Shown here in pieces: positions 19,413-32,684 of a stretch of 64,000 nt of DNA. Both the position numbers and the translations under genes were made by a program. The notes below the pieces were generated by a model. It was not told the DNA's origin. It was given only the letters and a program-made list of their open reading frames with translations, and ran no database searches. The DNA is from Planctomycetota bacterium (GTDB taxonomy: Bacteria; Planctomycetota; SZUA-567; H5-PLA8): assembly GCA_035628505.1 (NCBI GenBank), contig DASPJR010000088.1, forward strand, positions 30,765 to 94,764. Direction: 5' to 3'. Numbering within the stretch: the first letter of the stretch is position 1; the number at the start of each line of letters is the position of its first letter.

Positions 19413-22400
19413 TCAGGGAACTGGAATCTCATTGAGTGTGTACGCCGCATGCGGGTTAACAAGGGCGTCGCCGGTAGCGGACTTTACCCCCGCTGCGCCG
19501 ATCATGTAGACTCGATCCCTGATCAGCGCGCCTGTCCGGATCTCGACCGAGCGCCCGTCAGCGGCCACGGCGATCTTTTCAATGCTTAAAGGCATTCGAT
19601 CCAGTTCCGGCGATCCATACGAGCCCGTGTACTCATAGCGGTAGTGTTCGATCGCGTAAGACTCGGGCAGGCCTGCCAGCTTCGCGTCGACGGCTTGTGT
19701 GAAATTCAAGCGGAAGCCCTGGGGCCTTACGTTGATGGAATGAATTTCGAACGGAGTCTGTCCCGTGAAATCGATTCGGAACAAAGCGCCTCGATCCGGC
19801 TGTGCCATCCAGCCGGGTTCGGTGATGCTTCCAACGAAGAGCCGCCCACGTGGATCGAATGCCAGTGTCAGCGGCCCAAGCAGCCCCTTGCCCCAGAACG
19901 GAAAACAGGCACCCTGGTACTCGCCATTCACTTTTTCCAGACTCGCGCGAATGATGGCGCCGCCATACATCAACTCCGCCAGGAAGAATTGGCCCTTGAA
20001 GGGACCGAACTTTTCCCCAGAGTTATAGGTCACACCGTTAATCGAACGCCCCCACGCATACGGCACCCACAGCGCGGTTTTCCCTGGGGGTTTTGTCGCG
20101 TGCTCCTTCTGATCAGGGTTGGGAAAACCGTAGTACCGTCCCTTCACCACATGGCAGAGCTTGTTTGTGGCAACCCATTCGCCCTGGTTGTCTGTGTAGA
20201 AGATTTCGGAGTCCGGTCCGTTGCACCAGCCCAGTGGATTGCGGAATCCAAAGGCGATTTCTTCGGGCTTCTCGCCTGGAATCAGGCGAATTGCCGAGCC
20301 TGATCCGGGAAGCTTGCGATTGGCATACGGCGCAAAACTGATCACCAGGGCACCCGTCTTGTCACGCACAAGGCCATAGCCGTAGTCGTATGTTTCAGCA
20401 ATGCCGTGCGGAAGCGCAAACACACGTTCAAAATTTGTTGCCCTGCCGCCTGTCTCCGTAATGCGTGTCACATTTCGCCGATGAAGTACGTACAATCCGT
20501 CTTTCTCCGCCAGCATCGCATAGACTTCCTGAAACAGCCCGCCCGCGTAGTTTTCGAATTGCGCGCCCTTCCCGTCATCGGCTTGGTCCCGAAGCACGAA
20601 AAGCTCACCGTTCTTCATTGAAGCGACGAAGACACGACCGTCGATGGGGTGAACCGCCACCGCGCCCGGCATCAGCAGATCTTCGCCGGTAACAGTTTTC
20701 GGCCGCGGATAGACAATCGCACGGTATCCGGGGCGTTCGAGCGAGCCGCCAATCGGTCCGGGATCCGGCAGTTGCGGGTAGTTCGTGGGCGGTGGCGACG
20801 CCACGTTTTTCAAGTCGTGCGTTACGCTCTTCACCGGCAAGCCTGACCATTGAATTTCATGCGTCAGTTTGCGAGCCGTGACTCGGAACGTTTCGCTTCC
20901 CTCGATTGATTTCTCTGCATACCGCGCGAGCAGCTTAATGCGCGCGCCATCTGCCAATCGTTCGTACCCAAGCAGTTCGACTGCTTGCGGCGGAGATGTC
21001 AGAGCGTCGATTGCAGACGAGGCTGTGAACTCTGTAAGCGCTACGCCTGCCAACGAGAAAGTGCGTGTGCGCCCACGCACGTTTCTTAAAATCTGCGCAC
21101 CCGAGTACGCTCCGCGTAACTTCAGTGCTCCAATATCGTAAACCAGCAGGTCGTGCGAACCGTACGCCACGCAAATGCTTTCAACGTTCGCTTTGTCCGG
21201 CAAGCGTATGGGAATCTGCGCAACCAGCGGAGGCGCGCCGGCAGGCGGAATGTCAACAGGCACCGCGGGAAGCGGCTTGGGGCTCGGCGCCTCCTTTCCG
21301 AGAGAAAGATAAGCCCAGATCGCTTCCTTCTGCCGAGCCACGTCGCCATCCAGAACAGATTTGATCGTCGCGGGCTGGCCATGCGTAAAGATCTGCGGCA
21401 TGACTGTTCCGGGAACAATGCGTGCAGGCTCGTCCATCCAGCGATCGAACCAATCGCGCCGAATGCGCTGCGTTGTGGTTGTAAGGTCCGGGCCCACCGC
21501 GCCTGGATCGCCTTCGTTCAGCTGCGCGCCATTCCACGTGTGGCAGGAAACACAGGAGTAGCCTTCAAATCCGACCAGCGAGGCGCCCGGTCCGGTCAAC
21601 GTGGGATCAGTTTCCTTCTTAGCCGCCGACGGCGGGCTTACCACGTCACCATCCATCTCAGCAAGCGCCTGAATAATGCTTTCGACATGCGCGCCATAGT
21701 GGGGCATGACGAAGGAGTAACTTTTGTAGCGCACACCGCTCACGCCCTGACGCAAGGCGCTGGAGAGATACTCACGCGTGTACTTCGCCAGCGCGTTGTT
21801 CAACCGCGGCGTTCGCAGGAAGGGAACGGTCTGCAGGAACGCCCCACCCACGGATGCGCTGGCTTCTTCCAGCGGAGGCGGACGATCGTCCACACTGTGG
21901 CAGCGAAAACATCCCAGGCGGCCGATTAACAGCCTGCGATCTTCCACAGGCGATGCATGGCGCTCGCGCGTTGAAACAGATGTGTACGCCACGAGAGCTT
22001 TGCGCGTGGACTCATCCAATTTGAAGCGGACGCTTCCGCTGTCGGAAAGACACCCCGCAACTTTCTCCGGAGTAAGCGGAATCATCTGTTTTTCTGCTTG
22101 AGGCAGCCCCGCGTGACACGCAGCACAACCTTTCGTGCGCAGGAGTGAAATTGCCGCGCCGCTCTTGTCGGGCGCTCCGAGCCTCTTGACCGCCGCGTCC
22201 AGTTCGGCGTCGCTCACAGGAGCTTCCCGTGTGGCAGGCGCGGCCTGTTGCTTGCACCATAGCAACAGATACGCGGCCAGATCACGAGCGGCCTCTGCGG
22301 ACAGCGCGAATTGCGGATGCCTTCCATCCGGGTAGCGGACAATGGGATTCTTCAGGAATTCAGCCAGTTGCGCCGCCGGAAGGCGGTCGGCCAGGCCGTC

Positions 22401-23342
22401 GAAGGATATTCGGTCTACAACCTTCTGCTCCTCTCGCCTGGTCTCAAGATCGTAGTGGCAGGCCACGCATCCGATACTCAGATAAAGCTTTCTGCCGCGC
22501 CGGTGATCGCCTGCCGGGGTCACTGCTGCTTTCGCGCTATTTTCCGTCAGAAGAAAATCGGCAATCAACCGCCGTTCAATGGCGCCATCGCGATCAGGCT
22601 TGAACAAGCTCGGCATTCTTGCTGCAGGGTGCGCCTCTGCTGGATTATTTAAAAACGAAACGAGCCATTCGCGCGAAACACGCGCACCCAGGCCGCTCAG
22701 CGACGGACCGGGTGGCGCATCCTGTAGTGCAGGGAATGCGCCGGCGTGGCACTGTGCGCAGCCGAGTCGGCTCGCCGCGTTGCGCCCTTCCATCGCCAAG
22801 CTATCCAGCCGGACAGTTTCCGGAATTTCCTGCGGCACATGCTTGAACACCCACGCAGGAATTGGTTCGCGCGAAAAGGTTGCGCCCTGCCACCAGAGTT
22901 GCAGACGAGCCGGCACGTTCGCAAGCGAGCGGTAATCGATGCTGATCCGGTAGCGGCCGGCGCGGCGCACAAGAGACTGCTCCGAGCGGACCTGGGCTGA
23001 TTCGCTTTCACCGCGGCCTTTGAGAACCTCATCGCCGTCGATTTTGACGGTCAATTCGCCGCCGACGAAGGCATCAAATAAAAAAGGGGCATCCCCGCGA
23101 AGGACTATCACTCCTTCAAAGGACGCGCTGAATACGCCGGAAGGCAAGCGCGGGTGCGGGCTGGAGTTTCCAAACGAGAACGCCGGCTTCGGCTCGATCC
23201 GCGATACAGTGGCTCCCTCCGGAGATCGATATGTTGCGACGAGCCCAGGCGAAAGTGACTTCGGATTGATCGGCGCAGCATCGCCTGCGTTTGCAGCAGC
23301 AGTTGCAAGCATCGCCAGAATGAGTGTGCAGGTGAGACGCAT
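19413..23342 (-). CDS. Multi-heme c-type cytochrome / PVC-type dehydrogenase (1309 aa, five CxxCH motifs plus a beta-propeller)
   Basis: Signal peptide. CxxCH motifs GCAQCHAG, GCVACHYD, GCAACHAG, GCFRCHSV, CVSCHTW. C-terminal region resembles a sorbosone/glucose-dehydrogenase-like propeller. Confidence 0.7.
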   Translation of the reverse strand: MRLTCTLILAMLATAAANAGDAAPINPKSLSPGLVATYRSPEGATVSRIEPKPAFSFGNSSPHPRLPSGVFSASFEGVIVLRGDAPFLFDAFVGGELTVKIDGDEVLKGRGESESAQVRSEQSLVRRAGRYRISIDYRSLANVPARLQLWWQGATFSREPIPAWVFKHVPQEIPETVRLDSLAMEGRNAASRLGCAQCHAGAFPALQDAPPGPSLSGLGARVSREWLVSFLNNPAEAHPAARMPSLFKPDRDGAIERRLIADFLLTENSAKAAVTPAGDHRRGRKLYLSIGCVACHYDLETRREEQKVVDRISFDGLADRLPAAQLAEFLKNPIVRYPDGRHPQFALSAEAARDLAAYLLLWCKQQAAPATREAPVSDAELDAAVKRLGAPDKSGAAISLLRTKGCAACHAGLPQAEKQMIPLTPEKVAGCLSDSGSVRFKLDESTRKALVAYTSVSTRERHASPVEDRRLLIGRLGCFRCHSVDDRPPPLEEASASVGGAFLQTVPFLRTPRLNNALAKYTREYLSSALRQGVSGVRYKSYSFVMPHYGAHVESIIQALAEMDGDVVSPPSAAKKETDPTLTGPGASLVGFEGYSCVSCHTWNGAQLNEGDPGAVGPDLTTTTQRIRRDWFDRWMDEPARIVPGTVMPQIFTHGQPATIKSVLDGDVARQKEAIWAYLSLGKEAPSPKPLPAVPVDIPPAGAPPLVAQIPIRLPDKANVESICVAYGSHDLLVYDIGALKLRGAYSGAQILRNVRGRTRTFSLAGVALTEFTASSAIDALTSPPQAVELLGYERLADGARIKLLARYAEKSIEGSETFRVTARKLTHEIQWSGLPVKSVTHDLKNVASPPPTNYPQLPDPGPIGGSLERPGYRAIVYPRPKTVTGEDLLMPGAVAVHPIDGRVFVASMKNGELFVLRDQADDGKGAQFENYAGGLFQEVYAMLAEKDGLYVLHRRNVTRITETGGRATNFERVFALPHGIAETYDYGYGLVRDKTGALVISFAPYANRKLPGSGSAIRLIPGEKPEEIAFGFRNPLGWCNGPDSEIFYTDNQGEWVATNKLCHVVKGRYYGFPNPDQKEHATKPPGKTALWVPYAWGRSINGVTYNSGEKFGPFKGQFFLAELMYGGAIIRASLEKVNGEYQGACFPFWGKGLLGPLTLAFDPRGRLFVGSITEPGWMAQPDRGALFRIDFTGQTPFEIHSINVRPQGFRLNFTQAVDAKLAGLPESYAIEHYRYEYTGSYGSPELDRMPLSIEKIAVAADGRSVEIRTGALIRDRVYMIGAAGVKSATGDALVNPHAAYTLNEIPVP

Positions 23343-23512: not shown

Positions 23513-24007
23513 TCAGACTGAGATGAGTCTGAGAAGCCAATTAATAACCAGGGCGGCAAGCACCAGCGAGCCCGTGTAGACCTGCAGTCGTCTGGCCCAG
23601 TTCGCCTGCCGCGCGGCAGGGCGACGGTAGAGATAAAAGCGGAAGGGCACCTGTATGACGAAGAAGGCATACAGCAGCAATCCGACGCGGTTGCTTGAAA
23701 ATGAGTGCTCCAGCCGCCCATGCGTTAAGTGCACAAAAGCACGGGTCATCCCGCAGCCCGGGCATTCCGCGCCACACATTTTGCTGATGCACATCGGCGG
23801 CAGTTTATATCTGCCCAGAGATATTTCTTCAGAGTCCGCTTTGCCATTGAGCAGGAATGGCAGCGAGATCATGGCCAGGCTGATCAGAAAATACGTCAGG
23901 TGCGTGGCGCTATCCTGCGGCAAAGCTCTCTCGGGCGAGAAAGCTGCGCGCATCGACGCCGCCAGTCTCGAGATAACAGATGGTCTGCCGAGAGGTATCT
24001 GGTCCAT
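23513..24007 (-). CDS. DUF2752-family small membrane protein, last gene of the ubiquitin-like operon
   Basis: Signature CPGCGMTRAF followed by hydrophobic helices. The ORF-track start (24016) overlaps the E2 stop by 4 nt. An ATG lies 9 nt inside, at 24007. Confidence 0.55.
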   Translation of the reverse strand: MDQIPLGRPSVISRLAASMRAAFSPERALPQDSATHLTYFLISLAMISLPFLLNGKADSEEISLGRYKLPPMCISKMCGAECPGCGMTRAFVHLTHGRLEHSFSSNRVGLLLYAFFVIQVPFRFYLYRRPAARQANWARRLQVYTGSLVLAALVINWLLRLISV

Positions 24008-24012
24008 GCGAC

Positions 24013-24915
24013 TCACGAATTGACCATCACTGCGGGCGCGCAGCGTGTACAGAACATCTGCGAACCTGCGCCGGATTTCACTTTTTGAATGTGCTCAAGG
24101 CATGTGGATTTGCCGCACGCCTGGCACTCCACGATGCAGTCCATGCAGCGGCTGTGTTCGCAGATACTGCAGCGGGCCTGGTGGCGCATGCAGGTTGTCT
24201 GCTGACAGGAGGCGCACTTCATGGCGCATTTCTGACACGTGACTGCCTTGCAGCTCGCGCAGGTCAGCAGCGCGCATTTCAGACAGACGACGGCATCGCA
24301 GAGCTGGCAATGCAGCTTGCAGTTCTCGCAGCAGACGTGGCTGTTCAGACAGACACTCATGCTTTCAGTCGAGCCATTCTTGCCGCAATTGGCGCATGTG
24401 TCGCCAGCGAGCATCTTCCCATCGCTCGACCGGCCGACGGCCTCACCGACGGCAAGCATTGAACCGAAGTCGAACGTGTCCAGGGGCAGCGAGGCACTGT
24501 TCTCTTCGACCCACTTCGCCGCCTCGCCGTTCAATGGGCTCTTCACGTTGTAGGACTGATACGAGAGCATCTCGGCGATGCGTACGATCAGATTTGCCAG
24601 CGATTCGCCGGCCGCCCAGTGATCGCCGATGCAGATCGCATGCGGCGCAATGTTGGGATGAAACACCGGGGTCAGCATCCGGCACTGCGGCGCCAGGCGC
24701 GGGTACGCGGCAGTGAGGTTGATCTCCACAAGGAACGTGTTGCGAATATGGATCTGCCCATCCATTGCTTTTTCGAGCCCTTTGACGAGGTACTCGATCT
24801 GGTACTTTTCAGGCGGATCCCCAAGCGATTTCTTGATGTGTATGCGCGACTTCTGCGTAAACAGTGTGCACAGACGGTCGTAATCGGCCTTCAAGCGGCG
24901 CAGCCTGACGCTCAT
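24013..24915 (-). CDS. Ubiquitin-conjugating enzyme E2 (UBC fold) with a cysteine-rich C-terminal tail
   Basis: N-terminal helix RLRRLKADYDRL. Core YPRLAPQCRMLTPVFHPNIAPHAICIGDHW...SPLNGEAAKW aligns to the eukaryotic E2 HPN-x(5-6)-ICL-x2-W...SPLN pattern, with a catalytic Cys. The C-terminal ~115 aa contain ~27 Cys in periodic C-x2-C / C-x4-C spacing. Its start overlaps the upstream protease stop (ATGA). Confidence 0.8.
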   Translation of the reverse strand: MSVRLRRLKADYDRLCTLFTQKSRIHIKKSLGDPPEKYQIEYLVKGLEKAMDGQIHIRNTFLVEINLTAAYPRLAPQCRMLTPVFHPNIAPHAICIGDHWAAGESLANLIVRIAEMLSYQSYNVKSPLNGEAAKWVEENSASLPLDTFDFGSMLAVGEAVGRSSDGKMLAGDTCANCGKNGSTESMSVCLNSHVCCENCKLHCQLCDAVVCLKCALLTCASCKAVTCQKCAMKCASCQQTTCMRHQARCSICEHSRCMDCIVECQACGKSTCLEHIQKVKSGAGSQMFCTRCAPAVMVNS

Positions 24916-26222
24916 TTTTCGAGCCCCTCGATCGTGTTCGGCATGAAGTACTTTTCCCGCTCAGCGGGGCTGAGCAGCTTTACGAAGCTCGGCGTAGAGA
25001 TGGCGAAGTTGATGCCTTCTGTCGTGGACTTGTCATGTGTCCAGGTGTTTACGCCGACCAGCATTCCGTCGGAAGCGTACAGACCGCCGCCGCTGTTGCC
25101 CTGGTTAATCGGCGTCTGCGTCTGATAAATTTCCATGGACTGATTGCCGAGCTTACTCGTGCGTACGCCGGAGATAATGCCTTCCGTATAGGACCACGAC
25201 AGTGAAACGGGATTGCCTATCGCAAAGACTTTTTCTCCCGGCGACAGCACGCGCGGCGAGATCTGGATGGGCTTGTATTTGTCCAGCGTGAGCGCCTGGC
25301 AGCCCACGATCGCCAGGTCGACTGCCTCATCCCCTGACCATTCAACCACGCCACTGCTTTCCTCGCCGTTATAGAAGACAATGCGAAGATCGCTGTTGTC
25401 CTTCTTGTCTCCGGCTACGTGCTTGTTTGTCAGAATGTAACACTTGCGATCCTGGCTCTTCAATATCACCCCGGATCCGAAACGCATGCCTTCAAGCACG
25501 CCCGCGTTGTTCTTGATAATCACGTTCGCCCGCATGGCATTGGCAGCGGGTGCAGGCATGCTCTGCAATTGCTGCTCTGAAGGCAGGTTTTCATTCAGCC
25601 GCATATCGGCAGTCTGCTGGCTGGCCGTGTGTTTATGGGCGTAGGCAAGGTAAGCGAAATAGAAAATGAGCAGCAGTCCCGGCGCGCCGATGGATGAAAT
25701 TGCCAGCGGCATTCCACTGCGTCTGTTTTCTGGCGTCGTGATAATAACGAGTGCGATCACGCCCAGCACGGTGGCCGCCAGGCACAGCATGATTCCAAGA
25801 ATCACCAGCTTCTGGTGCCCTGCTACTGCTCCCAGCAACCCAATGGCGCTGAGGCCCGCAACAATCGCTCCGGCGACAGCCAACCGGCTCGTGCTGACAG
25901 GGCCCTTGGGCATGAATGAGGCCGCCACATCCTGCGGCGCCTGCCGGGCCGGGCGCACGGGCACTGTAATATTCGCCAGTTCGTCTTCACGAATGACGAT
26001 GTCCGGCTGGGCGTTGCCGGCGGTCGTGCGCACGGCCGTGTCACAGTGATACGACGCGCAGCCCTGCTTGCGGGCCCAGCAGGTGTCGTGATGAATCGCC
26101 CCGCAGTCGTTGCAGAAGCAGACCATCTGGCCAACGTCCACGGGGGCCTGGCAATACGGGCACGTGTTGCCGGAGTGAAACGTATTGGCGACAATCGGCC
26201 GTGATGGTGCGGAGGTCTTCAT
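24912..26222 (-). CDS. C4HC3 zinc finger + transmembrane segment + trypsin-like (S1, HtrA-like) serine protease fusion
   Basis: N-terminal CPYCQAPVDVGQMVCFCNDCGAIHHDTCWARKQGCASYHC. Two hydrophobic helices. A catalytic-domain-like region follows: ILTNKHVAG...DLAIV...GNSGGGLY (Ser nucleophile context GNSGG). Probable start at the internal ATG 26222. The ORF track extends to a GTG at 26297 that overlaps the upstream gene. Confidence 0.65.
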   Translation of the reverse strand: MKTSAPSRPIVANTFHSGNTCPYCQAPVDVGQMVCFCNDCGAIHHDTCWARKQGCASYHCDTAVRTTAGNAQPDIVIREDELANITVPVRPARQAPQDVAASFMPKGPVSTSRLAVAGAIVAGLSAIGLLGAVAGHQKLVILGIMLCLAATVLGVIALVIITTPENRRSGMPLAISSIGAPGLLLIFYFAYLAYAHKHTASQQTADMRLNENLPSEQQLQSMPAPAANAMRANVIIKNNAGVLEGMRFGSGVILKSQDRKCYILTNKHVAGDKKDNSDLRIVFYNGEESSGVVEWSGDEAVDLAIVGCQALTLDKYKPIQISPRVLSPGEKVFAIGNPVSLSWSYTEGIISGVRTSKLGNQSMEIYQTQTPINQGNSGGGLYASDGMLVGVNTWTHDKSTTEGINFAISTPSFVKLLSPAEREKYFMPNTIEGLEK

Positions 26223-26230
26223 CGAGGCTC

Positions 26231-26842
26231 TCAATCGAAGAGAATCATCAAACCCATCAGGAGCAGCAGAAAACCGCTGATCCCGACAGAACACCACACC
26301 AGAGCTTTGAGTGTGGACGGCAGGCGGCGATAGTCAATACCCATGAATTCCTTCTGGTAGATAAGGACTCCGTTGAGTACCAGTGCCAGAGGTGACAGAC
26401 ACGCAGCTGCCGACAGAAGGAACAGGCCGACAACTTTGTTTCGCGCCGCGTTGTACTCTTTGCCCTCATATTCCCGCGTGAGGTACTCTTCTTTGCTCAC
26501 CACATCGCGTGTTTCAAATGACGCGCCGCAGAAGCGGCACTTGAGCGCCTGCCCCTTGATTGTTTTGCCGCATGCCGGGCAGGGCTTCTCGCCAGCCCAT
26601 GCATTGGTGACGGGCAAGCCCTCTGCATGTTTTGTTGTTTTAGGCGTGCATTCACAGCCATAGGCCGAGCAGCCGCCGTTTTCTTTCCAGCACTCCGTAT
26701 GAAATGGAAGGTTGCACGCCGGGCAGTAAACAATGCGTTCGCCGGCAATCACGCCGGTCTGGCAGATCGAACACAGCTTTCCTGCCGTGCTCGTGCCGGC
26801 CTCAAACTCCTTGGGCAAAGCAGCGGGTTCGGGAGCAGACAT
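26231..26842 (-). CDS. Membrane-anchored C4HC3 (RING/PHD-like) zinc-finger protein with an extra C-terminal zinc ribbon
   Basis: CSICQTGVIAGERIVYCPACNLPFHTECWKENGGCSAYGC, then CPACGKTIKGQALKCRFCG, then two C-terminal TM helices. ATG at 26842 (GGGGAGA upstream) lies 7 nt after the upstream gene's stop. Confidence 0.6.
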   Translation of the reverse strand: MSAPEPAALPKEFEAGTSTAGKLCSICQTGVIAGERIVYCPACNLPFHTECWKENGGCSAYGCECTPKTTKHAEGLPVTNAWAGEKPCPACGKTIKGQALKCRFCGASFETRDVVSKEEYLTREYEGKEYNAARNKVVGLFLLSAAACLSPLALVLNGVLIYQKEFMGIDYRRLPSTLKALVWCSVGISGFLLLLMGLMILFD

Positions 26843-26849
26843 GGCTGTT

Positions 26850-27578
26850 CTATCTCCCCTCGGCCGCAAGACGGATCAATGTAAAGACTGCCTGTGAAAC
26901 CAGGGAGATCAGCAGCAGCTTGCCGCCCTTCTTCTTTCCCTGCACCATCCAAACAATCGCCATGATGCAAGCAATGCCGCCGCACAGAATGCCGAAGGCG
27001 ATTTCCGCACCGGTGAGATTCTCATCATCATCAGCCCCCGCCTGGAGCTTTTTCTGCCTTTCGCGATCCACCGGATCCTGGTACTCGCCGCAAAAGCGGC
27101 ACACGCGCGCTTTTTTCTGAATCTGCTCGCCGCACGAGACACATTCTTTTGTGTCTCCAGCAGGAGCCGAAACGACCGTTCCAATGGCTGCGGCGGACGC
27201 CAACTTTGGCTGCGACGGGCAAGCTGGATGCCCGCAGGCACCTGCTTTCTCACGGCAGGCCTGATGCATGGTGCTGCCGCAGCTCTGACAGTTGCAGACG
27301 TCATCGCCCAGTTCGATTGCAACCGAACAGGACGGACAGGTGCGGCCAAGCAGAGCCTTGTTCGCCTTCATGCGTTCAGGGAAAAAGGGCGGGCCGGGCG
27401 GCGGAGGCAGAGACGGCGCGCCATGAGACGGCGTCAGCGCAAGCGGGTCGGCCGTCAACGGCGGTGCGGCTGCAGCAACGGGCTTGGGAAGTTCCGCTCC
27501 ACAGTACATGCAGGAATTGCTTGTGTTGACTGCAACATTCCTGTCGCAGCTCGTGCACCGGACCGTTTCCCTGTTCAT
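26850..27578 (-). CDS. Membrane-anchored C4HC3 (RING/PHD-like) zinc-finger protein with flanking zinc ribbons
   Basis: CTSCDRNVAVNTSNSCMYCG (ribbon), then CPSCSVAIELGDDVCNCQSCGSTMHQACREKAGACGHPAC (C4HC3), then CVSCGEQIQKKARVCRFCG (ribbon), then a C-terminal TM segment. ATG at 27578. Confidence 0.6.
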   Translation of the reverse strand: MNRETVRCTSCDRNVAVNTSNSCMYCGAELPKPVAAAAPPLTADPLALTPSHGAPSLPPPPGPPFFPERMKANKALLGRTCPSCSVAIELGDDVCNCQSCGSTMHQACREKAGACGHPACPSQPKLASAAAIGTVVSAPAGDTKECVSCGEQIQKKARVCRFCGEYQDPVDRERQKKLQAGADDDENLTGAEIAFGILCGGIACIMAIVWMVQGKKKGGKLLLISLVSQAVFTLIRLAAEGR

Positions 27579-27610: not shown

Positions 27611-28690
27611 TCAGGCGCCCTTTGTCTTTTCCGAATATTTCAACACGGCTTCGCCGAGTGAAATGACATCGTTGGATTGAAGCACGTACTTGTCGATGGC
27701 CTTGCCGTTCACGAAAGTTCCCTTGCCGCTGCCTTCATCGGTCAGGATGTATTTGCTGCCGGATTTCATGACGGTGGCGTGCAGCGGCGCAATGTCCGGG
27801 TCCTTGAAAAGGTAAATGTCGGACTTGGGAGACGAACCGATCAGCATCGGATTTTTGAAGACAATGAATTGTTTTCCCGTCAGCGGGCCTTTCAGCATGA
27901 GAAACCAGGCTTCCTTGGACAGGTTTTCGAAGAGCCCGATGAAGATGCCAACGAAGAGTGACACCGCAAAGATGCCCACGAATCTGCTCACGGAACCATC
28001 CGAGGCCTGTCCGAGCACAAAGCGGCTGATGGGATCAAAAAACAAACCGCCGATCAGTCCGCCAATCATTCCCCCGACAAAACCATTCAGCACAAGCTTT
28101 TTGGATTTCAGCGCAATCCCCAGCCCCATCCCCGCGCCCATGCTGACGACCGACCACGCGATAGCCCGCCCGCTCATGAAGATGACGAACGACATGCCTT
28201 TTAACGGAAACTCGCCCGGCGCAGGCGGCGCCTGATTGCGCATGAAAGCCACCGCAATCATGGACGTGATTCCGAAGAGAATATCCGCCACGATGGTGGT
28301 CAGCAGGGTGACGACCAGTCCGACGCCCATTCCCACCGCGCCGCAATAGAGCACCTGTTTCCAGTTGCGATTCATCAATCCGTAAACGGTGCCAATAGAA
28401 AGGCCGAGCGCAGCAGCAACCGGCCCGAAGAGGAGATAATCGGAGACGAAGGGAATCCCGCGCGAATGGCCGTGGTCGCCTTCCCTGTTATACGGTTCAG
28501 TGATTGCCCATACCGTCACGCCGCCGATGACCGAAGCCACTGAGTAATAGAAGATCGGGTTGTAGTAAAACGGCGTCTTAACGTCGGCAGTCTGCTGAGC
28601 GGCCTGGGGCTGCACGGAGCGATGCAGCGCCAGCACATCGTCGATGGCCGGGTCGCGCAGATCGTCTTCCGAAATCATGATGTCGGGCAT
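27611..28690 (-). CDS. Polytopic membrane protein with a C-terminal FHA domain
   Basis: At least six hydrophobic helices, followed by GKQFIVFKNPMLIGSSPKSDIYLFKDPDIAPLHATVMKSGSKYILTDEGSGKGTFVNGKAI...LQSNDVISLG. This is the classic FHA pattern (GR/SxxD..L.D..VS..HA.I...Y.L.D.GS.NGTFVNG). ATG with a GGAGAGGAGA RBS. Confidence 0.7.
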   Translation of the reverse strand: MPDIMISEDDLRDPAIDDVLALHRSVQPQAAQQTADVKTPFYYNPIFYYSVASVIGGVTVWAITEPYNREGDHGHSRGIPFVSDYLLFGPVAAALGLSIGTVYGLMNRNWKQVLYCGAVGMGVGLVVTLLTTIVADILFGITSMIAVAFMRNQAPPAPGEFPLKGMSFVIFMSGRAIAWSVVSMGAGMGLGIALKSKKLVLNGFVGGMIGGLIGGLFFDPISRFVLGQASDGSVSRFVGIFAVSLFVGIFIGLFENLSKEAWFLMLKGPLTGKQFIVFKNPMLIGSSPKSDIYLFKDPDIAPLHATVMKSGSKYILTDEGSGKGTFVNGKAIDKYVLQSNDVISLGEAVLKYSEKTKGA

Positions 28691-28716: not shown

Positions 28717-30021
28717 TTATTTCTTGCTGGGAATCGCGCTGCCGCTTGCGGCGGGCGCGGCCTTTTGTTCCTTGCCATACAGAATTTCCAGCGCCCGCGG
28801 CATCTCCTGTTCGAGGATGGGCTTTATGCCAGGGGAAATACGGAGTGCATTTTCAAGAATCCGGCGTGCTGTTTCCTTTTCCAAGTCGCCAAATTTGGAC
28901 GGATCGGCTTCGTACGGCTTGATGATTTCGCTGGCGCGCTGAACGTACAACATCGCCACAGCCGCGCTCAGTTCATCCTGGTGACGTGACGTAGCAGCGA
29001 CGCGCTGGCTGAGGTTCTGCCGCGAATTCATCATCTGCTCGATGTCGTCGCGGAACTTCGTTCGAGATTTGTTGTAGTGCTGCTCCAGCTTCGCCAACTG
29101 ATCCGTAAGTGCTTTAAGCTCGGTTTGTGCGGCGGCGTCACCAGCCTTGACCTTCTCTCCGATGGTCTGCATTTTTTCACGAATTTCCGCGAAGTCGCGC
29201 GAAGCAAGCGCATTAAGCGCGCTGAATTCGACAATGGAATAGATCTCGCTTTCGAGACTGGCCGTCACTTCTTTCCGGATATCCTGCACCGCCTGGTAAC
29301 GGCCCAGCATCAGCCCGCAACCGAGCGCCACCAGCATGAAAATAAGGGTGGTCAGAAAGCCGGGACCGCTTTCGCCGGAGGAATACTGCACGGGGGTGTC
29401 GTAAGTCGCCGCAGGCTGAGCCGAGCGCCCAGCGGAATTCATCGGCTTGGGACCGTCAACTTCAACAGGCTCGGCAATGCCTGTCGCAAGCTTGATCTGC
29501 CGGCTGCCAACCCAGTAGCGGGACAGGGGCACGCTCTTGCCTTCAATCCAGGCAAAGCAGCCTTCCTCATGCTTTTTCGTTTCAATGACGATTGCGACCT
29601 GGTACGGGAGATTGAAGAAGTTCTCCTGGATGAACATGTCCATTCCGGAAAGGAACACGCCGAACCCCGGATGCGTGTGGTACCAGCCGACGATGCGCTG
29701 TTTGGGATATTCCTTGTCTTTGATGCTGTTGATGTGGTCCCACGTCTGGTGCGTGAAGGTCACCTGCGCGCCGTAATTGTTCGAATGAAGCCCTTCGATG
29801 ACCGCGGTGATGCACAGAAAATAACCTTGCGAATCGCGGCACACGTCTCCGATCAGTACGCCGCACAGCTCGACTTCATTGGTCGTGTTCGCGTGGCTTT
29901 TCATCCGCTCATAGGCACGCTCGTCGATGTGCACGCGGTATTCCGAGGCAATCTGTGTCGGAAAGACCGCCTCTCGCGCATCCTTTTTTTCGATATTTGA
30001 ATAGTCCAGAGTCGCGGCCAT
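28717..30021 (-). CDS. JAB/MPN (JAMM) metalloprotease with a TM helix and a coiled-coil C-terminal extension
   Basis: Perfect JAMM motif: upstream Glu (NEVELCGVLIGD) and HTHPGFGVFLSGMD (H-x-H-x7-S-x2-D). TM helix GFLTTLIFMLVALGCGLMLG. C-terminal ~200 aa are helical and charged. Confidence 0.8.
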   Translation of the reverse strand: MAATLDYSNIEKKDAREAVFPTQIASEYRVHIDERAYERMKSHANTTNEVELCGVLIGDVCRDSQGYFLCITAVIEGLHSNNYGAQVTFTHQTWDHINSIKDKEYPKQRIVGWYHTHPGFGVFLSGMDMFIQENFFNLPYQVAIVIETKKHEEGCFAWIEGKSVPLSRYWVGSRQIKLATGIAEPVEVDGPKPMNSAGRSAQPAATYDTPVQYSSGESGPGFLTTLIFMLVALGCGLMLGRYQAVQDIRKEVTASLESEIYSIVEFSALNALASRDFAEIREKMQTIGEKVKAGDAAAQTELKALTDQLAKLEQHYNKSRTKFRDDIEQMMNSRQNLSQRVAATSRHQDELSAAVAMLYVQRASEIIKPYEADPSKFGDLEKETARRILENALRISPGIKPILEQEMPRALEILYGKEQKAAPAASGSAIPSKK

Positions 30022-30052: not shown

Positions 30053-31264
30053 TCACACGCGAATTTCTTTTCCTACATCACTCTCACGCCACGCTTCACC
30101 CAGCACCGCTTGCGCATCGCCGGAAAACAGATACGAAATGGAACGTTCTCCCTTGCGCGCGGTCACCACGTCAAAGCGCGGCGTTCCGATTTGCTCAAAA
30201 GTCATGTTGTCGATCGGAGCCGGCTCAAGTCCGAGCGTGTGTGTCAGTTCCGGAGCACGCATCTGCCCGCACTGCGGACATTTTCCTTCCGCTTCGGTCG
30301 TCTTCCCCAGTGAACGGAAAACGGGTTCGCTGGTCCCGCAGGCGGGGCAGTTGAGCGCCGTGAGAATATCCCGGCCGAGCTGCAGAACGGTGCCTTCGCC
30401 GAGCTCCGCGCGTGCGATCTTCAGAAGATCGGAGACTCTCATGTCGGCCACGCCAGCCTTCAGCCGCCGGAGATCCTGGTGCGGCTCATGGGCTGCACAA
30501 TCCGGCTTTCGCGTGTAAGCGACGGTGTACGATTCGGCGCTCAGGCCGTGATAAACGAACCCCTTGCCGCTGAGCGTCTCCATTCCATGCAGCAGCTTGA
30601 TAGCTTCCTGCATCTGCACCGCGGAGATAATGCTCGCGGTTGTCGGTGTCGTCGGGACTTTGCCTTCGTTCAGCTGGGTGCGTGTGAGCAGCGCGCAGGA
30701 GCGGCGGTTCTCAAGCATCTTCCAGTCTGTTGCGTTCATCGTACATTCGTAACAGGGGCCCGGCCCCGGCGCGAAAACGCGCGCCACGCCATCAAGCACC
30801 TCAATCGCGCCATCGATCCAGGGTTTTCCCGCAAACAGAGCAGCGCTGTTGATCGCCACGCGAGCCTCCCGATTGTCGAGGCCGCCGAGAATTACATCGG
30901 CCCAGAAATACACTCCGAGCCCAAGGTCATGAACAACGTTGCCGATGAATGGTTGCGCCCTGATCTGCGGATAAAGCTCCCGCGCCGAGCGGCAGGCGAT
31001 CTCGGCTTTGTATTTTCCATTGTCCGATTCACGGAAGAGCGGCGAGCGCGTGAGGTTTGAGTTTTCGATGCGGTCCATATCCGCGACCACGAGGTTGCCA
31101 ATACCGAGCAGCGCGCAATTCTTGACAATCTCATTGCCCAGCGCGCCGGCGCCGATAACAAGCACCCGCGCGTTCCGCAGACGGTTCTGGTCCCACCAGG
31201 AGATGAGCTCAAAGCGGCTGAAGCGGTGCTCTGGAACGGCCTCGCGAATGTTCAGGACGCTCAT
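30053..31264 (-). CDS. E1-like ubiquitin-activating enzyme (ThiF/MoeB/HesA family) with a C-terminal Cys4 extension
   Basis: Rossmann nucleotide-binding motif RVLVIGAGALGNEIVKNCALLGIGNLVVADMDRIENSNLTR. MoeB-like PGPGPCYECT motif. C-terminal CPACG...CPQCG zinc-binding pair plus an extra ~100-aa domain. Its ATG overlaps the Ubl stop (ATGA). Confidence 0.85.
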   Translation of the reverse strand: MSVLNIREAVPEHRFSRFELISWWDQNRLRNARVLVIGAGALGNEIVKNCALLGIGNLVVADMDRIENSNLTRSPLFRESDNGKYKAEIACRSARELYPQIRAQPFIGNVVHDLGLGVYFWADVILGGLDNREARVAINSAALFAGKPWIDGAIEVLDGVARVFAPGPGPCYECTMNATDWKMLENRRSCALLTRTQLNEGKVPTTPTTASIISAVQMQEAIKLLHGMETLSGKGFVYHGLSAESYTVAYTRKPDCAAHEPHQDLRRLKAGVADMRVSDLLKIARAELGEGTVLQLGRDILTALNCPACGTSEPVFRSLGKTTEAEGKCPQCGQMRAPELTHTLGLEPAPIDNMTFEQIGTPRFDVVTARKGERSISYLFSGDAQAVLGEAWRESDVGKEIRV

Positions 31265-31575
31265 GCGCAGCCTCGGCCGGCTTCGTGGACAGCGCGTCCG
31301 CCAGCCGTGATCTCCGGCTGAAGTCGAAGCACATCGCCATCTTTTACGCTGGCGCTCTGCAGCGTTTCTTCATCGAGCAGCTGGCGGCCGCTGGCCTTGT
31401 GGTGGAATTTGTAGCTCATGAGCTGCCCATCGGGACTGTGCCGCGGCAGGTTCATGCGTTCGACAAGCAGCACAATGATGCGGTTCACCGGCGCCGCGCG
31501 CGGCAGATTGACTGTCACCTTCTTGTTGCCGGTGGCATCCCAGACTTCAACATTCATGCCAGCTTCATCTGCCAT
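31261..31575 (-). CDS. Ubiquitin-like beta-grasp protein with a Gly-Gly followed by an 11-residue C-terminal tail (pro-Ubl)
   Basis: Start ATG 31575 with AAGGAG 10 nt upstream. Sequence MADEAGMNVEVWDATGNKKVTVNLPRAAPVNRIIVLLVERMNLP...GQLMSYKFHHKASGRQLLDEETLQSASVKDGDVLRLQPEITAGG|RAVHEAGRGCA parallels the secondary-structure order of ubiquitin. Its C-terminal half mirrors [29 protein letters not shown]. Its stop overlaps the E1 start. Confidence 0.75.
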   Translation of the reverse strand: MADEAGMNVEVWDATGNKKVTVNLPRAAPVNRIIVLLVERMNLPRHSPDGQLMSYKFHHKASGRQLLDEETLQSASVKDGDVLRLQPEITAGGRAVHEAGRGCA

Positions 31576-31613
31576 CTCTGGTGCACTCCTTCTGGTAAGC
31601 GTGTTCAAGGACG

Positions 31614-32684
31614 TTAAAGAGTCTTTATTGCATCAATGGGCCCGGCGAGTTCGCTTTCGGCGACGTACCAGCGGCCTTCTCCCCGAATCAATATTTTTCG
31701 AAATGCGCGCTTTTCGGTCCTGCGAATGACAAGGTAGACAATGGCGAAAATCAACGGGCTGATCACAAAAACAACGATCCAGGAAGGATAGCTCGTAAAG
31801 GTGATGTTTGCCTCGACCATGGCGACGCCACCGTGTTCGCTGATTGACTTCACTGAAGTGAGCTCGGCACTGCGGGCATGGCTGCTCGGACCCGTGAACA
31901 CCGATTTCCAGTACGCCTTGAAAGATTCGACATCCTTTATGTGAAACTGTCCGGCTTGAGATGGGATTTTCGGGTCGTTGAAAGTAAGGCTCGGCACCGG
32001 ACCAATGTTCCGTGCCGACGGAGCCAGACACGCGAACGCGCGCTCCGCGCGGTTGGTCGCAACGGCCGTATAGAAGCCCTTGAAGGCATGATGCGCTGTT
32101 AATGCGCCCGCAATCTTGTGCGTGATACTGTCGTTGTACCAGGACACACACACCGGAATCACAAAGATCAGGGTGCCGAGGATTCCGAATACGCCGAACG
32201 GAGCGCCATTGTCGCCTTTCAGCACGATGCCCGATACGATCGACATCAATGACAGTCCGAGCAGGCCCATGAGGACCTTGGTCTTTGTGGAAAGCAACGC
32301 ACCGGTCAACTCTGCATCGGCTGCCACTGCTTCCGGATTTGCGCTGTATTTTTGAACCTCAGCAACGCGCGCCTCAAGCAGCTGCCGCTGCTGCTCGGCG
32401 TTCAATTCACCTGCGATGGATTGCCGGCAAAGCGGACAGATCGCCGAACCGGCAGGGATCTGTTCGGCACACGCAGGACACTCGGTCATCTGTTGAGCGG
32501 TGACAGGCGGCGAAGAAATCGCGGGCGAATCTCGCAAGACAGCAGGTCCAGGCGAACCTTTGTCATCAGTGGTGCTCGGTGCCGTTAACTCTGCCCCGCA
32601 GACGGCACAGAGAACCAGACCACCGGCATTGAGATCATGTACGCGAAACGTTTTTCCACACTGGCATGAGACAGTAATTGGCAT
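31614..32684 (-). CDS. Zinc-ribbon membrane protein (first gene of the operon)
   Basis: N-terminal CQCGKTFRV...CAVCG and CPACAEQIPAGSAICPLCRQ ribbons, then four or five TM helices, then a C-terminal ~130-aa domain of unknown function. It lies 38 nt upstream of the Ubl gene on the same strand. Confidence 0.5.
   Translation of the reverse strand: MPITVSCQCGKTFRVHDLNAGGLVLCAVCGAELTAPSTTDDKGSPGPAVLRDSPAISSPPVTAQQMTECPACAEQIPAGSAICPLCRQSIAGELNAEQQRQLLEARVAEVQKYSANPEAVAADAELTGALLSTKTKVLMGLLGLSLMSIVSGIVLKGDNGAPFGVFGILGTLIFVIPVCVSWYNDSITHKIAGALTAHHAFKGFYTAVATNRAERAFACLAPSARNIGPVPSLTFNDPKIPSQAGQFHIKDVESFKAYWKSVFTGPSSHARSAELTSVKSISEHGGVAMVEANITFTSYPSWIVVFVISPLIFAIVYLVIRRTEKRAFRKILIRGEGRWYVAESELAGPIDAIKTL

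Follow-up and report, generated by a model that had tools for sequence, protein, structure and literature searches.

Membrane-anchored Prok-RING_1 proteins as predicted E3 or adaptor subunits of a ubiquitin-like conjugation operon in Planctomycetota

Introduction

Do bacteria possess RING proteins that could act as E3 ligases beside an E1, an E2 and a ubiquitin-like protein (Ubl)? RING E3 ligases have long been seen as a eukaryotic and archaeal feature and, to our knowledge, no E3 takes part in any bacterial Ubl-conjugation system characterised to date (CBASS, Bil and Bub). The question is raised by a contig of a Planctomycetota metagenome-assembled genome (MAG; GenBank assembly GCA_035628505.1, contig DASPJR010000088.1), of which a stretch of 64,000 nucleotides was analysed (the window, to which all positions refer). 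On its minus strand, the interval 24912–27578 holds three consecutive genes encoding proteins that we call RingA, RingB and RING-protease, in an operon that also encodes an E1, an E2 and a Ubl. A first-pass annotation, made from the DNA letters, described the three as tandem paralogous membrane-anchored zinc-finger proteins with a RING-H2/PHD-like C4HC3 arrangement, the third fused to an HtrA-like protease, and named them candidate E3 ligases or adaptors. Judged from their sequences, they are probably membrane-anchored members of the Prok-RING_1 family, predicted to serve as E3 or adaptor subunits of a membrane-associated Ubl-conjugation operon.

Results

RingA (242 amino acids; 26850–27578, ATG start at 27578), RingB (203 amino acids; 26231–26842, ATG start at 26842) and RING-protease (436 amino acids; 24912–26222, ATG start at 26222) have lengths that agree with the public gene calls on the same contig. 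A regular-expression scan found an identical 40-residue motif, C-x2-C-x12-C-x2-C-x4-H-x2-C-x6-C-x4-C, in all three, at residues 81–120 of RingA (27219–27338), 24–63 of RingB (26654–26773) and 21–60 of RING-protease (26043–26162). The proteins match the Pfam family PF14446 (Prok-RING_1) with E-values of 2.8e-8, 1.8e-10 and 2.6e-4, respectively; RingA (34.0 bits) and RingB (41.0 bits) lie above the gathering threshold of 29.1 and RING-protease (21.3 bits) under it, and homologues of RING-protease bear precomputed PF14446 matches. Pairwise BLASTP aligned RingA with RingB at 4e-16 over 117 residues covering the RING and a zinc ribbon, RING-protease with its paralogue RingB at 3e-10, and RingA with RING-protease at 4e-8. 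All eight ligands are invariant among 54 RingB homologues, and among 90 RING-protease homologues six are invariant and two at least 90% conserved. Reading frames, family matches, BLASTP and ligand conservation thus agree with the proposal of three tandem paralogous zinc-finger proteins at this site. The nine-position ligand spacing first suggested is to be corrected: an extra cysteine, forming a CxC, occurs in RingA and RING-protease, and because it is missing from RingB and not conserved in the RING-protease homologues, the common pattern is one of eight ligands, C4HC3.

In an AlphaFold2 model of RingB residues 1–120, computed from the 54-sequence alignment, the block-mean pLDDT is 92–95 across the RING, which forms one compact domain with a beta-hairpin and a helix (strands at 36–39 and 46–48, helix at 49–55) and superposes on RING-H2 domains at about 2 Å over 54–59 residues. 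Among known structures, the nearest are RING-H2 ligases of eukaryotes, membrane-anchored RNF13 and RMR1 among them, and PHD structures rank lower. The C4HC3 unit is predicted by this model to have a cross-braced, binuclear treble-clef fold of the RING type; on the choice between a cross-brace and independent ribbons, which the first-pass annotation had set as a check, the zinc-free prediction falls on the RING side and, together with the PF14446 membership, agrees with the RING-H2/PHD-like reading. A PHD finger proper is not indicated for RingB, whose PHD score is 19.2 bits against a threshold of 24 and whose last pair is C-x4-C, not C-x2-C. Nor were the C1 pattern (H-x12-C-x2-C-x13/14-C-x2-C-x4-H-x2-C-x7-C, with an N-terminal His ligand) and an above-threshold C1 score in Pfam found. 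A RingB profile search against PDB sequences returned weak matches only (E 0.001–0.06), which are not decisive alone: the top one is an engineered C2H2 finger protein and the rest are C1, PHD and RING-H2 domains. NCBIfam holds no model for the RING, E2 or DUF2752 proteins of the operon.

The gene context is the one in which Prok-RING_1 proteins are known. We compared the window with 83 related loci, 80 of them added by a scan of one genome per species, and scored the open reading frames (ORFs) of all 83 against the window proteins. E1, E2, Ubl and JAB genes share the operon with the RING genes in the window and in the 83 loci, and the E2 gene adjoins the RING-protease gene in 81 of them, which, with the PF14446 membership, speaks for the proposal that the RING proteins are candidate E3s. 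The conserved order is YukD-type Ubl, E1, JAB, FHA, (RingA-like), RingB, RING-protease, E2, DUF2752; it is seen in full wherever the contig is long enough, and at least 80 species-level genomes keep it. Most loci belong to Planctomycetota (Pirellulales, Planctomycetales, Isosphaeraceae and Phycisphaerales), and others come from Riflebacteria/Ozemobacteraceae, Sumerlaeota, Verrucomicrobia and Victivallales. Cultured carriers include Gimesia panareensis, Lacipirellula parvula, L. limnantheis and Aeoliella straminimaris. The first two keep the gene order of the window, with one or two small zinc-finger proteins before RING-protease, and the genes that flank the operon in them are unrelated and not defence-like.

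RingB is present in 77 of the 83 loci, and the fusion of a RING, membrane helices and a trypsin fold recurs in more than 90 proteins at 29–52% identity. Most loci (54) hold two complete RING motifs, while 19 hold three and 3 hold four; the 7 loci with a single motif lie on cut contigs. These counts identify RingB and RING-protease as the universal pair and the third RING as clade-specific. RingA-like homologues occur in 59 of the 83 loci, with a RING motif in just 24 RingA-like ORFs; the typical RingA-type protein combines zinc ribbons with the membrane module and has no RING, and the RING-bearing type is restricted to the clade of the window and a Riflebacteria group. In eleven loci, mainly Riflebacteria/Ozemobacteraceae MAGs, the RING-bearing RingA-type gene stands after the E2 gene and not before RingB (L015, L017–L019, L022, L024, L030, L036, L037, L039 and L054), and some loci of this group have four RING-motif ORFs. 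This placement and the extra RING ORFs suggest that the operon was rearranged and expanded outside Planctomycetota.

As had been proposed, RING-protease runs on into a trypsin-fold protease domain (24975–25538; Trypsin_2, 75 bits), with GNSGGGL at residues 375–381 and a catalytic triad of His268 (25419–25421), Asp302 (25317–25319) and Ser377 (25092–25094) that is invariant in the 90 homologues. The nearest solved relatives of this domain are the periplasmic DegS, DegP and DegQ, and DegS is the best of them (E 5e-23 by sequence, 1.4e-14 by Foldseek). The label "HtrA-like" suits the catalytic domain and not the whole architecture: Pfam gave no PDZ match in RING-protease, the C-terminus lies about 20 residues past the protease domain, and the NCBIfam DegS/HtrA models score 88–106 bits, far under their cut-offs of 408–470.

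RING-protease has no signal peptide; its first 110 or so residues are hydrophilic and precede three membrane helices (25638–25886), which AlphaFold2 (pLDDT 91.9) models as long helices at residues 113–134 (kinked), 137–162 and 171–211. Over the 90 homologues, the net charge is +2.64 in the flank before helix 1, +0.11 in the turn between helices 1 and 2, +1.77 in the loop between helices 2 and 3, and –1.96 in the 25 residues past helix 3. The positive-inside rule would put the RING and the helix 2–3 loop in the cytoplasm and the protease outside, and we consider a RING inside and a periplasmic protease in the fusion protein quite probable. Distant homologues have a shorter helix 1–turn–helix 2 hairpin (GIPLFG) with the same basic loop and third helix. 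A reading of these homologues with two transmembrane (TM) segments was rejected, as inspection of the sequences showed that the hydropathy window had merged their short hairpin. The RING domains are predicted on the cytoplasmic side, like the E2; the opposite prediction, of zinc fingers in the periplasm with the E2 in the cytoplasm, was the one that the first-pass annotation had named as speaking against its proposal. The expectation of one or two TM helices in each protein fits RingA and RingB, with two hydrophobic segments each, and fails for RING-protease, with three. That third helix also qualifies the idea of ligase and protease coupled in one polypeptide: the fusion is there, but its two domains most likely lie on opposite sides of the membrane, so that any coupling would have to cross it.

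RingA consists of an N-terminal zinc ribbon (residues 8–26; 27501–27557), a Pro-rich linker, the RING, a CxxC..CRFC ribbon (residues 146–163; 27090–27143) and a membrane module (residues 193–239; 26862–27002) of two segments whose loop, QGKKKGGK, is basic. RingB has its own CxxC..CRFC ribbon (residues 88–105; 26528–26581) behind the RING, followed by two TM segments (26237–26434). The flanking CxxC-x10-CRFCG zinc ribbons noticed earlier in two of the proteins are therefore those of RingA and RingB, and RingA has the N-terminal one in addition. In RingA-like proteins the membrane module is very conserved (LCxGIxCIxGIVWMIQGKPKGxK), with an acidic N-flank and a basic loop. RingB is distinguished by its putative E2-contact residues: the isoleucine of its C-x-I-C is kept in at least 80% of 76 sequences and is so conserved in RingB only, and a tryptophan at ligand 6 +1 is conserved in RingB and RING-protease. 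Because it alone keeps both the C-x-I-C isoleucine and the C-W tryptophan, RingB is the best candidate for binding the E2.

The remaining genes of the operon, all on the minus strand, include the other parts of a putative conjugation cascade, which appear competent. The E2 (24013–24915; UBC fold, Pfam UQ_con 42 bits) has the active-site context FHPNIAPHAIC, in which HPN and the downstream cysteine are kept. Its C-terminal extension of about 120 residues (24040–24396; residues 174–292) carries 26 cysteines, mostly in CxxC pairs spaced every 4–5 residues, and an E2 fused to such a zinc-knuckle array is unusual. No Pfam match was found in this tail, and homologues show weak Zn_ribbon_4/5 matches; a TM segment flagged in it by the Kyte-Doolittle scale was false. 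The E1 (30053–31264) is a ThiF-type adenylating enzyme (ThiF, 169 bits).

The Ubl (31261–31608) is of the YukD type (YukD, 41.8 bits). A 2011 abstract by Burroughs, Iyer and Aravind reportedly proposed conjugation of Ubls of this type. The Ubl homologues share a strongly conserved C-terminus, LRLQPEITAG, with Ala-Gly and not Gly-Gly; several stop exactly at ITAG and others bear unrelated, variable tails, the window protein having an 11-residue tail after ITAG (31264–31296). On sequence grounds, this C-terminus has the pattern expected of a processed, conjugatable modifier. With homologues of about 90 residues, the true start of the Ubl ORF probably lies downstream of the listed one (TTG, 31608).

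The JAB/JAMM isopeptidase (28717–30021; JAB, 50.9 bits) has an intact JAMM motif, HxH...S..D (HTHPGFGVFLSGMD), one TM segment at residues 221–239 and then a coiled coil of about 190 residues. This coiled coil is predicted to lie outside the cytoplasm, making the JAB protein a second operon product with domains on both sides of the membrane. A polytopic membrane protein with about six hydrophobic segments and a C-terminal FHA domain (27611–28690; FHA, 54 bits) is encoded at a conserved position in the operon, and the presence of this phosphothreonine reader hints at control by Ser/Thr phosphorylation. The last gene encodes a DUF2752 membrane protein (23513–24016; DUF2752, 54.7 bits), present in 59 of the 83 loci.

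The operon comprises about ten tightly packed genes with intergenic gaps of 7–32 bases. Start and stop codons overlap by 4 bases at the Ubl/E1 junction (31258–31268, ATGA), the RING-protease/E2 junction (24909–24919, ATGA) and the E2/DUF2752 junction (24010–24020, GTGA), which suggests translational coupling. At its head stands a zinc-ribbon and TM protein (31614–32684) with weak double zinc ribbon (DZR) matches only; its zinc ribbons and two TM segments are accompanied by a weak SnoaL-like region and a further TM segment at the C-terminus, and because homologues occur in 7 of the 83 loci only, it is best regarded as a clade-specific addition. Just downstream of the operon, a 1309-residue minus-strand ORF (19413–23342) contains several CxxCH haem-binding motifs, and we take it to resemble the large planctomycete proteins with cytochrome domains.

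Discussion

Our data place the three RING proteins in a family whose link to Ubl conjugation has been predicted before. Prokaryotic RING fingers associated with E1, E2, JAB and Ubl genes were reportedly described by Burroughs, Iyer and Aravind (Mol Biosyst 2011, 7:2261), prokaryotic RINGs are characterized as C4HC3 with a longer last spacer (PMC11354881, section 3.8), and related operons in Actinobacteria, Planctomycetes and Acidobacteria are listed as uncharacterised (PMC4197634). The locus shares with these Prok-RING_1 operons the family match, the C4HC3 pattern with the long last spacer and the link to E1, E2, JAB and a YukD-type Ubl, and, judged by later papers that cite the 2011 work, it differs in nothing essential and is a further instance. 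The databases agree: NCBI labels the RingB of the window "RING finger protein", and JGI labels a RING-protease homologue [quoted passage not shown]. The 2006 paper by Iyer does not cover this operon. Given the earlier computational prediction and the database annotation, the reading is a rediscovery of a sequence-based prediction of 2011. To what those citing papers report, the present analysis adds the probable placement of the RING inside and the protease outside, the distinction between a core pair of RingB and RING-protease and accessory RING copies, the assignment of the clearest E2-contact signature to RingB alone, and a Ubl C-terminus of Ala-Gly.

The closest experimentally tested system is the operon of Caldiarchaeum subterraneum, which encodes ubiquitin, E1, E2, a small RING protein and Rpn11 and was reconstituted in vitro, the RING protein being required for substrate modification, with Ile30, Trp58 and Arg69 important (PMC5654768). 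By sequence position, the C-x-I-C isoleucine and the tryptophan of RingB appear to be the residues corresponding to Ile30 and Trp58. Both operons combine a tailed Ubl, a JAMM peptidase, an E1, an E2 and a RING-H2-like protein. However, the Caldiarchaeum RING is small and soluble, whereas the RINGs here are membrane-anchored, come in two or three copies and include one fused to a protease; the modifier of the archaeal system is a true ubiquitin with a Gly-Gly end, in contrast to a YukD-type Ubl ending in Ala-Gly; and the FHA, DUF2752 and zinc-ribbon membrane proteins have no counterpart in the archaeal operon. Eukaryotic membrane-anchored RING-H2 ligases, namely the PA-TM-RING proteins RNF13 and RMR1, Hrd1, gp78 and the peroxisomal Pex2/10/12 RING trio, are also among the closest known systems. 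The protease shares with DegS/HtrA (family S1C) the chymotrypsin fold, the His-Asp-Ser triad, GNSGG, anchoring in the membrane at the N-terminus and a catalytic domain predicted to be periplasmic, but DegS/HtrA proteins have a PDZ domain and a single anchor, whereas this one has three TM helices, a predicted cytoplasmic RING and no PDZ domain. BilABCD, Bub and the type II CBASS Cap2/Cap3 systems are likewise bacterial operons, in which E1, E2 and Ubl genes are found with a peptidase of the JAB or another type (PMC10557695, PMC11601596); they have no RING proteins, in contrast to this operon, and Bub works via oxyesters while the E2 here keeps its cysteine.

A model that accommodates these features would start with the JAB peptidase trimming the Ubl tail and the E1 and E2 loading the Ubl in thioester form. 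At the inner membrane face, RING domains lying in the cytoplasm would then dock E2~Ubl and steer Ubl transfer to lysines of nearby membrane-associated targets. RingB is the most likely subunit to bind the E2, while RingA and RING-protease may be partner RINGs or serve as adaptors for substrates. In the fusion, three helices would join the cytoplasmic RING to the periplasmic PDZ-less DegS-like protease, so that conjugation of the Ubl would take place on one face of the membrane and proteolysis on the other. The two activities would either hit the same membrane-protein substrates, or one would report to the other.

Several points weigh against this E3 reading. Our literature searches (planctomycete operon, Prok-RING, PF14446) found no experimental or biochemical work on any protein of this bacterial operon. 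The structural evidence for the RING fold is a prediction made without zinc, RingB has sub-threshold Pfam C1_1 and PHD matches, and the topology rests on hydropathy, the positive-inside rule and AlphaFold2 helices. The acidic N-flank and basic loop of RingA misfit a simple N-in topology with two TM segments, and its membrane module may instead be a re-entrant segment plus one TM segment. On the side of the E2, the presumed RING-contact positions read YPR where UbcH5 has YPF and WAAG where it has WSPA. Features by which RING-H2 domains contact an E2 are partly kept: the isoleucine in RingB only, no conserved basic "linchpin" residue after the last cysteine, and the tryptophan at ligand 6 +1, not +4 (reference positions in part from PMC5654768). 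With the tryptophan offset, the linchpin missing and the E2 contact positions different, a RING–E2 interface, if it exists, would be divergent.

A first alternative is that the C4HC3 domains are other binuclear treble-clef interaction modules, PHD- or C1-like, which bind a peptide, the Ubl or membrane lipid as a scaffold and do not activate E2~Ubl, the E2 conjugating directly as in Bil and CBASS. The incomplete E2-contact features suit such a scaffold, and the C1 and PHD matches fit the known kinship of binuclear treble-clef folds; with the RING-H2 structures ranking first, we hold this alternative to be unlikely, though it is the most serious of those considered. It is highly improbable that the Cys/His clusters represent separate zinc ribbons or knuckles, not cross-braced, that resemble a RING in spacing only. 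The same proteins do hold genuine separate zinc ribbons (CxxC-x10-CxxC) and give weak Pfam ribbon and DZR matches, but the 40-residue unit forms one compact domain in the model, at a pLDDT of 92–95 and about 2 Å from RING-H2, and its eight ligands keep a fixed spacing and are conserved together.

A different objection concerns the fusion protein, whose protease could lie in the cytoplasm, on the side of the RING, and degrade or process Ubl-tagged proteins as a proteasome-free tag-and-cleave machine, which is roughly the picture of the first-pass annotation. A simple hydropathy scan gave no more than two peaks in 28 of 90 homologues, and cytoplasmic Trypsin_2 domains of defence proteins give weak PADLOC matches (RT-Protease, LmuA). 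The two-peak homologues, however, have the helix 1–turn–helix 2 hairpin (GIPLFG), the basic loop and helix 3, and hence the same N-in/C-out arrangement; the charge bias is consistent over the 90 sequences, AlphaFold2 shows three helices, and the catalytic domain matches periplasmic DegS/DegP far better (E 5e-23) than it matches the defence proteases (1e-10 to 1e-6). We regard a cytoplasmic protease as decidedly unlikely. PADLOC gave no match to a defence system: it returned generic E1–E2 and JAB domain matches, nothing for the E2, Ubl, RingA, FHA and DUF2752 proteins, and one weak unrelated match for RingB. A scan of viral contigs found relatives of the protease domain only and no RING fusion.

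A reading of the three proteins as Prok-RING_1 subunits of a Ubl-conjugation operon leaves room for a more specific and rather speculative possibility, namely that two or three RINGs form a hetero-oligomeric membrane ligase in which RING-protease links a periplasmic DegS-like protease to cytoplasmic Ubl conjugation. If this were true, the hetero-oligomer would be a bacterial machine for membrane and envelope proteins, similar to endoplasmic-reticulum-associated degradation or to Pex2/10/12, that tags on one face and clips on the other, or relays envelope proteolysis into Ubl signalling. Because the operon is conserved in cultured strains, the existence of a true bacterial E1–E2–RING cascade, and the identity of its targets, are directly testable. 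On the hetero-oligomer reading, Planctomycetota would widely carry a housekeeping Ubl system with true RING E3s, and not an anti-phage module.

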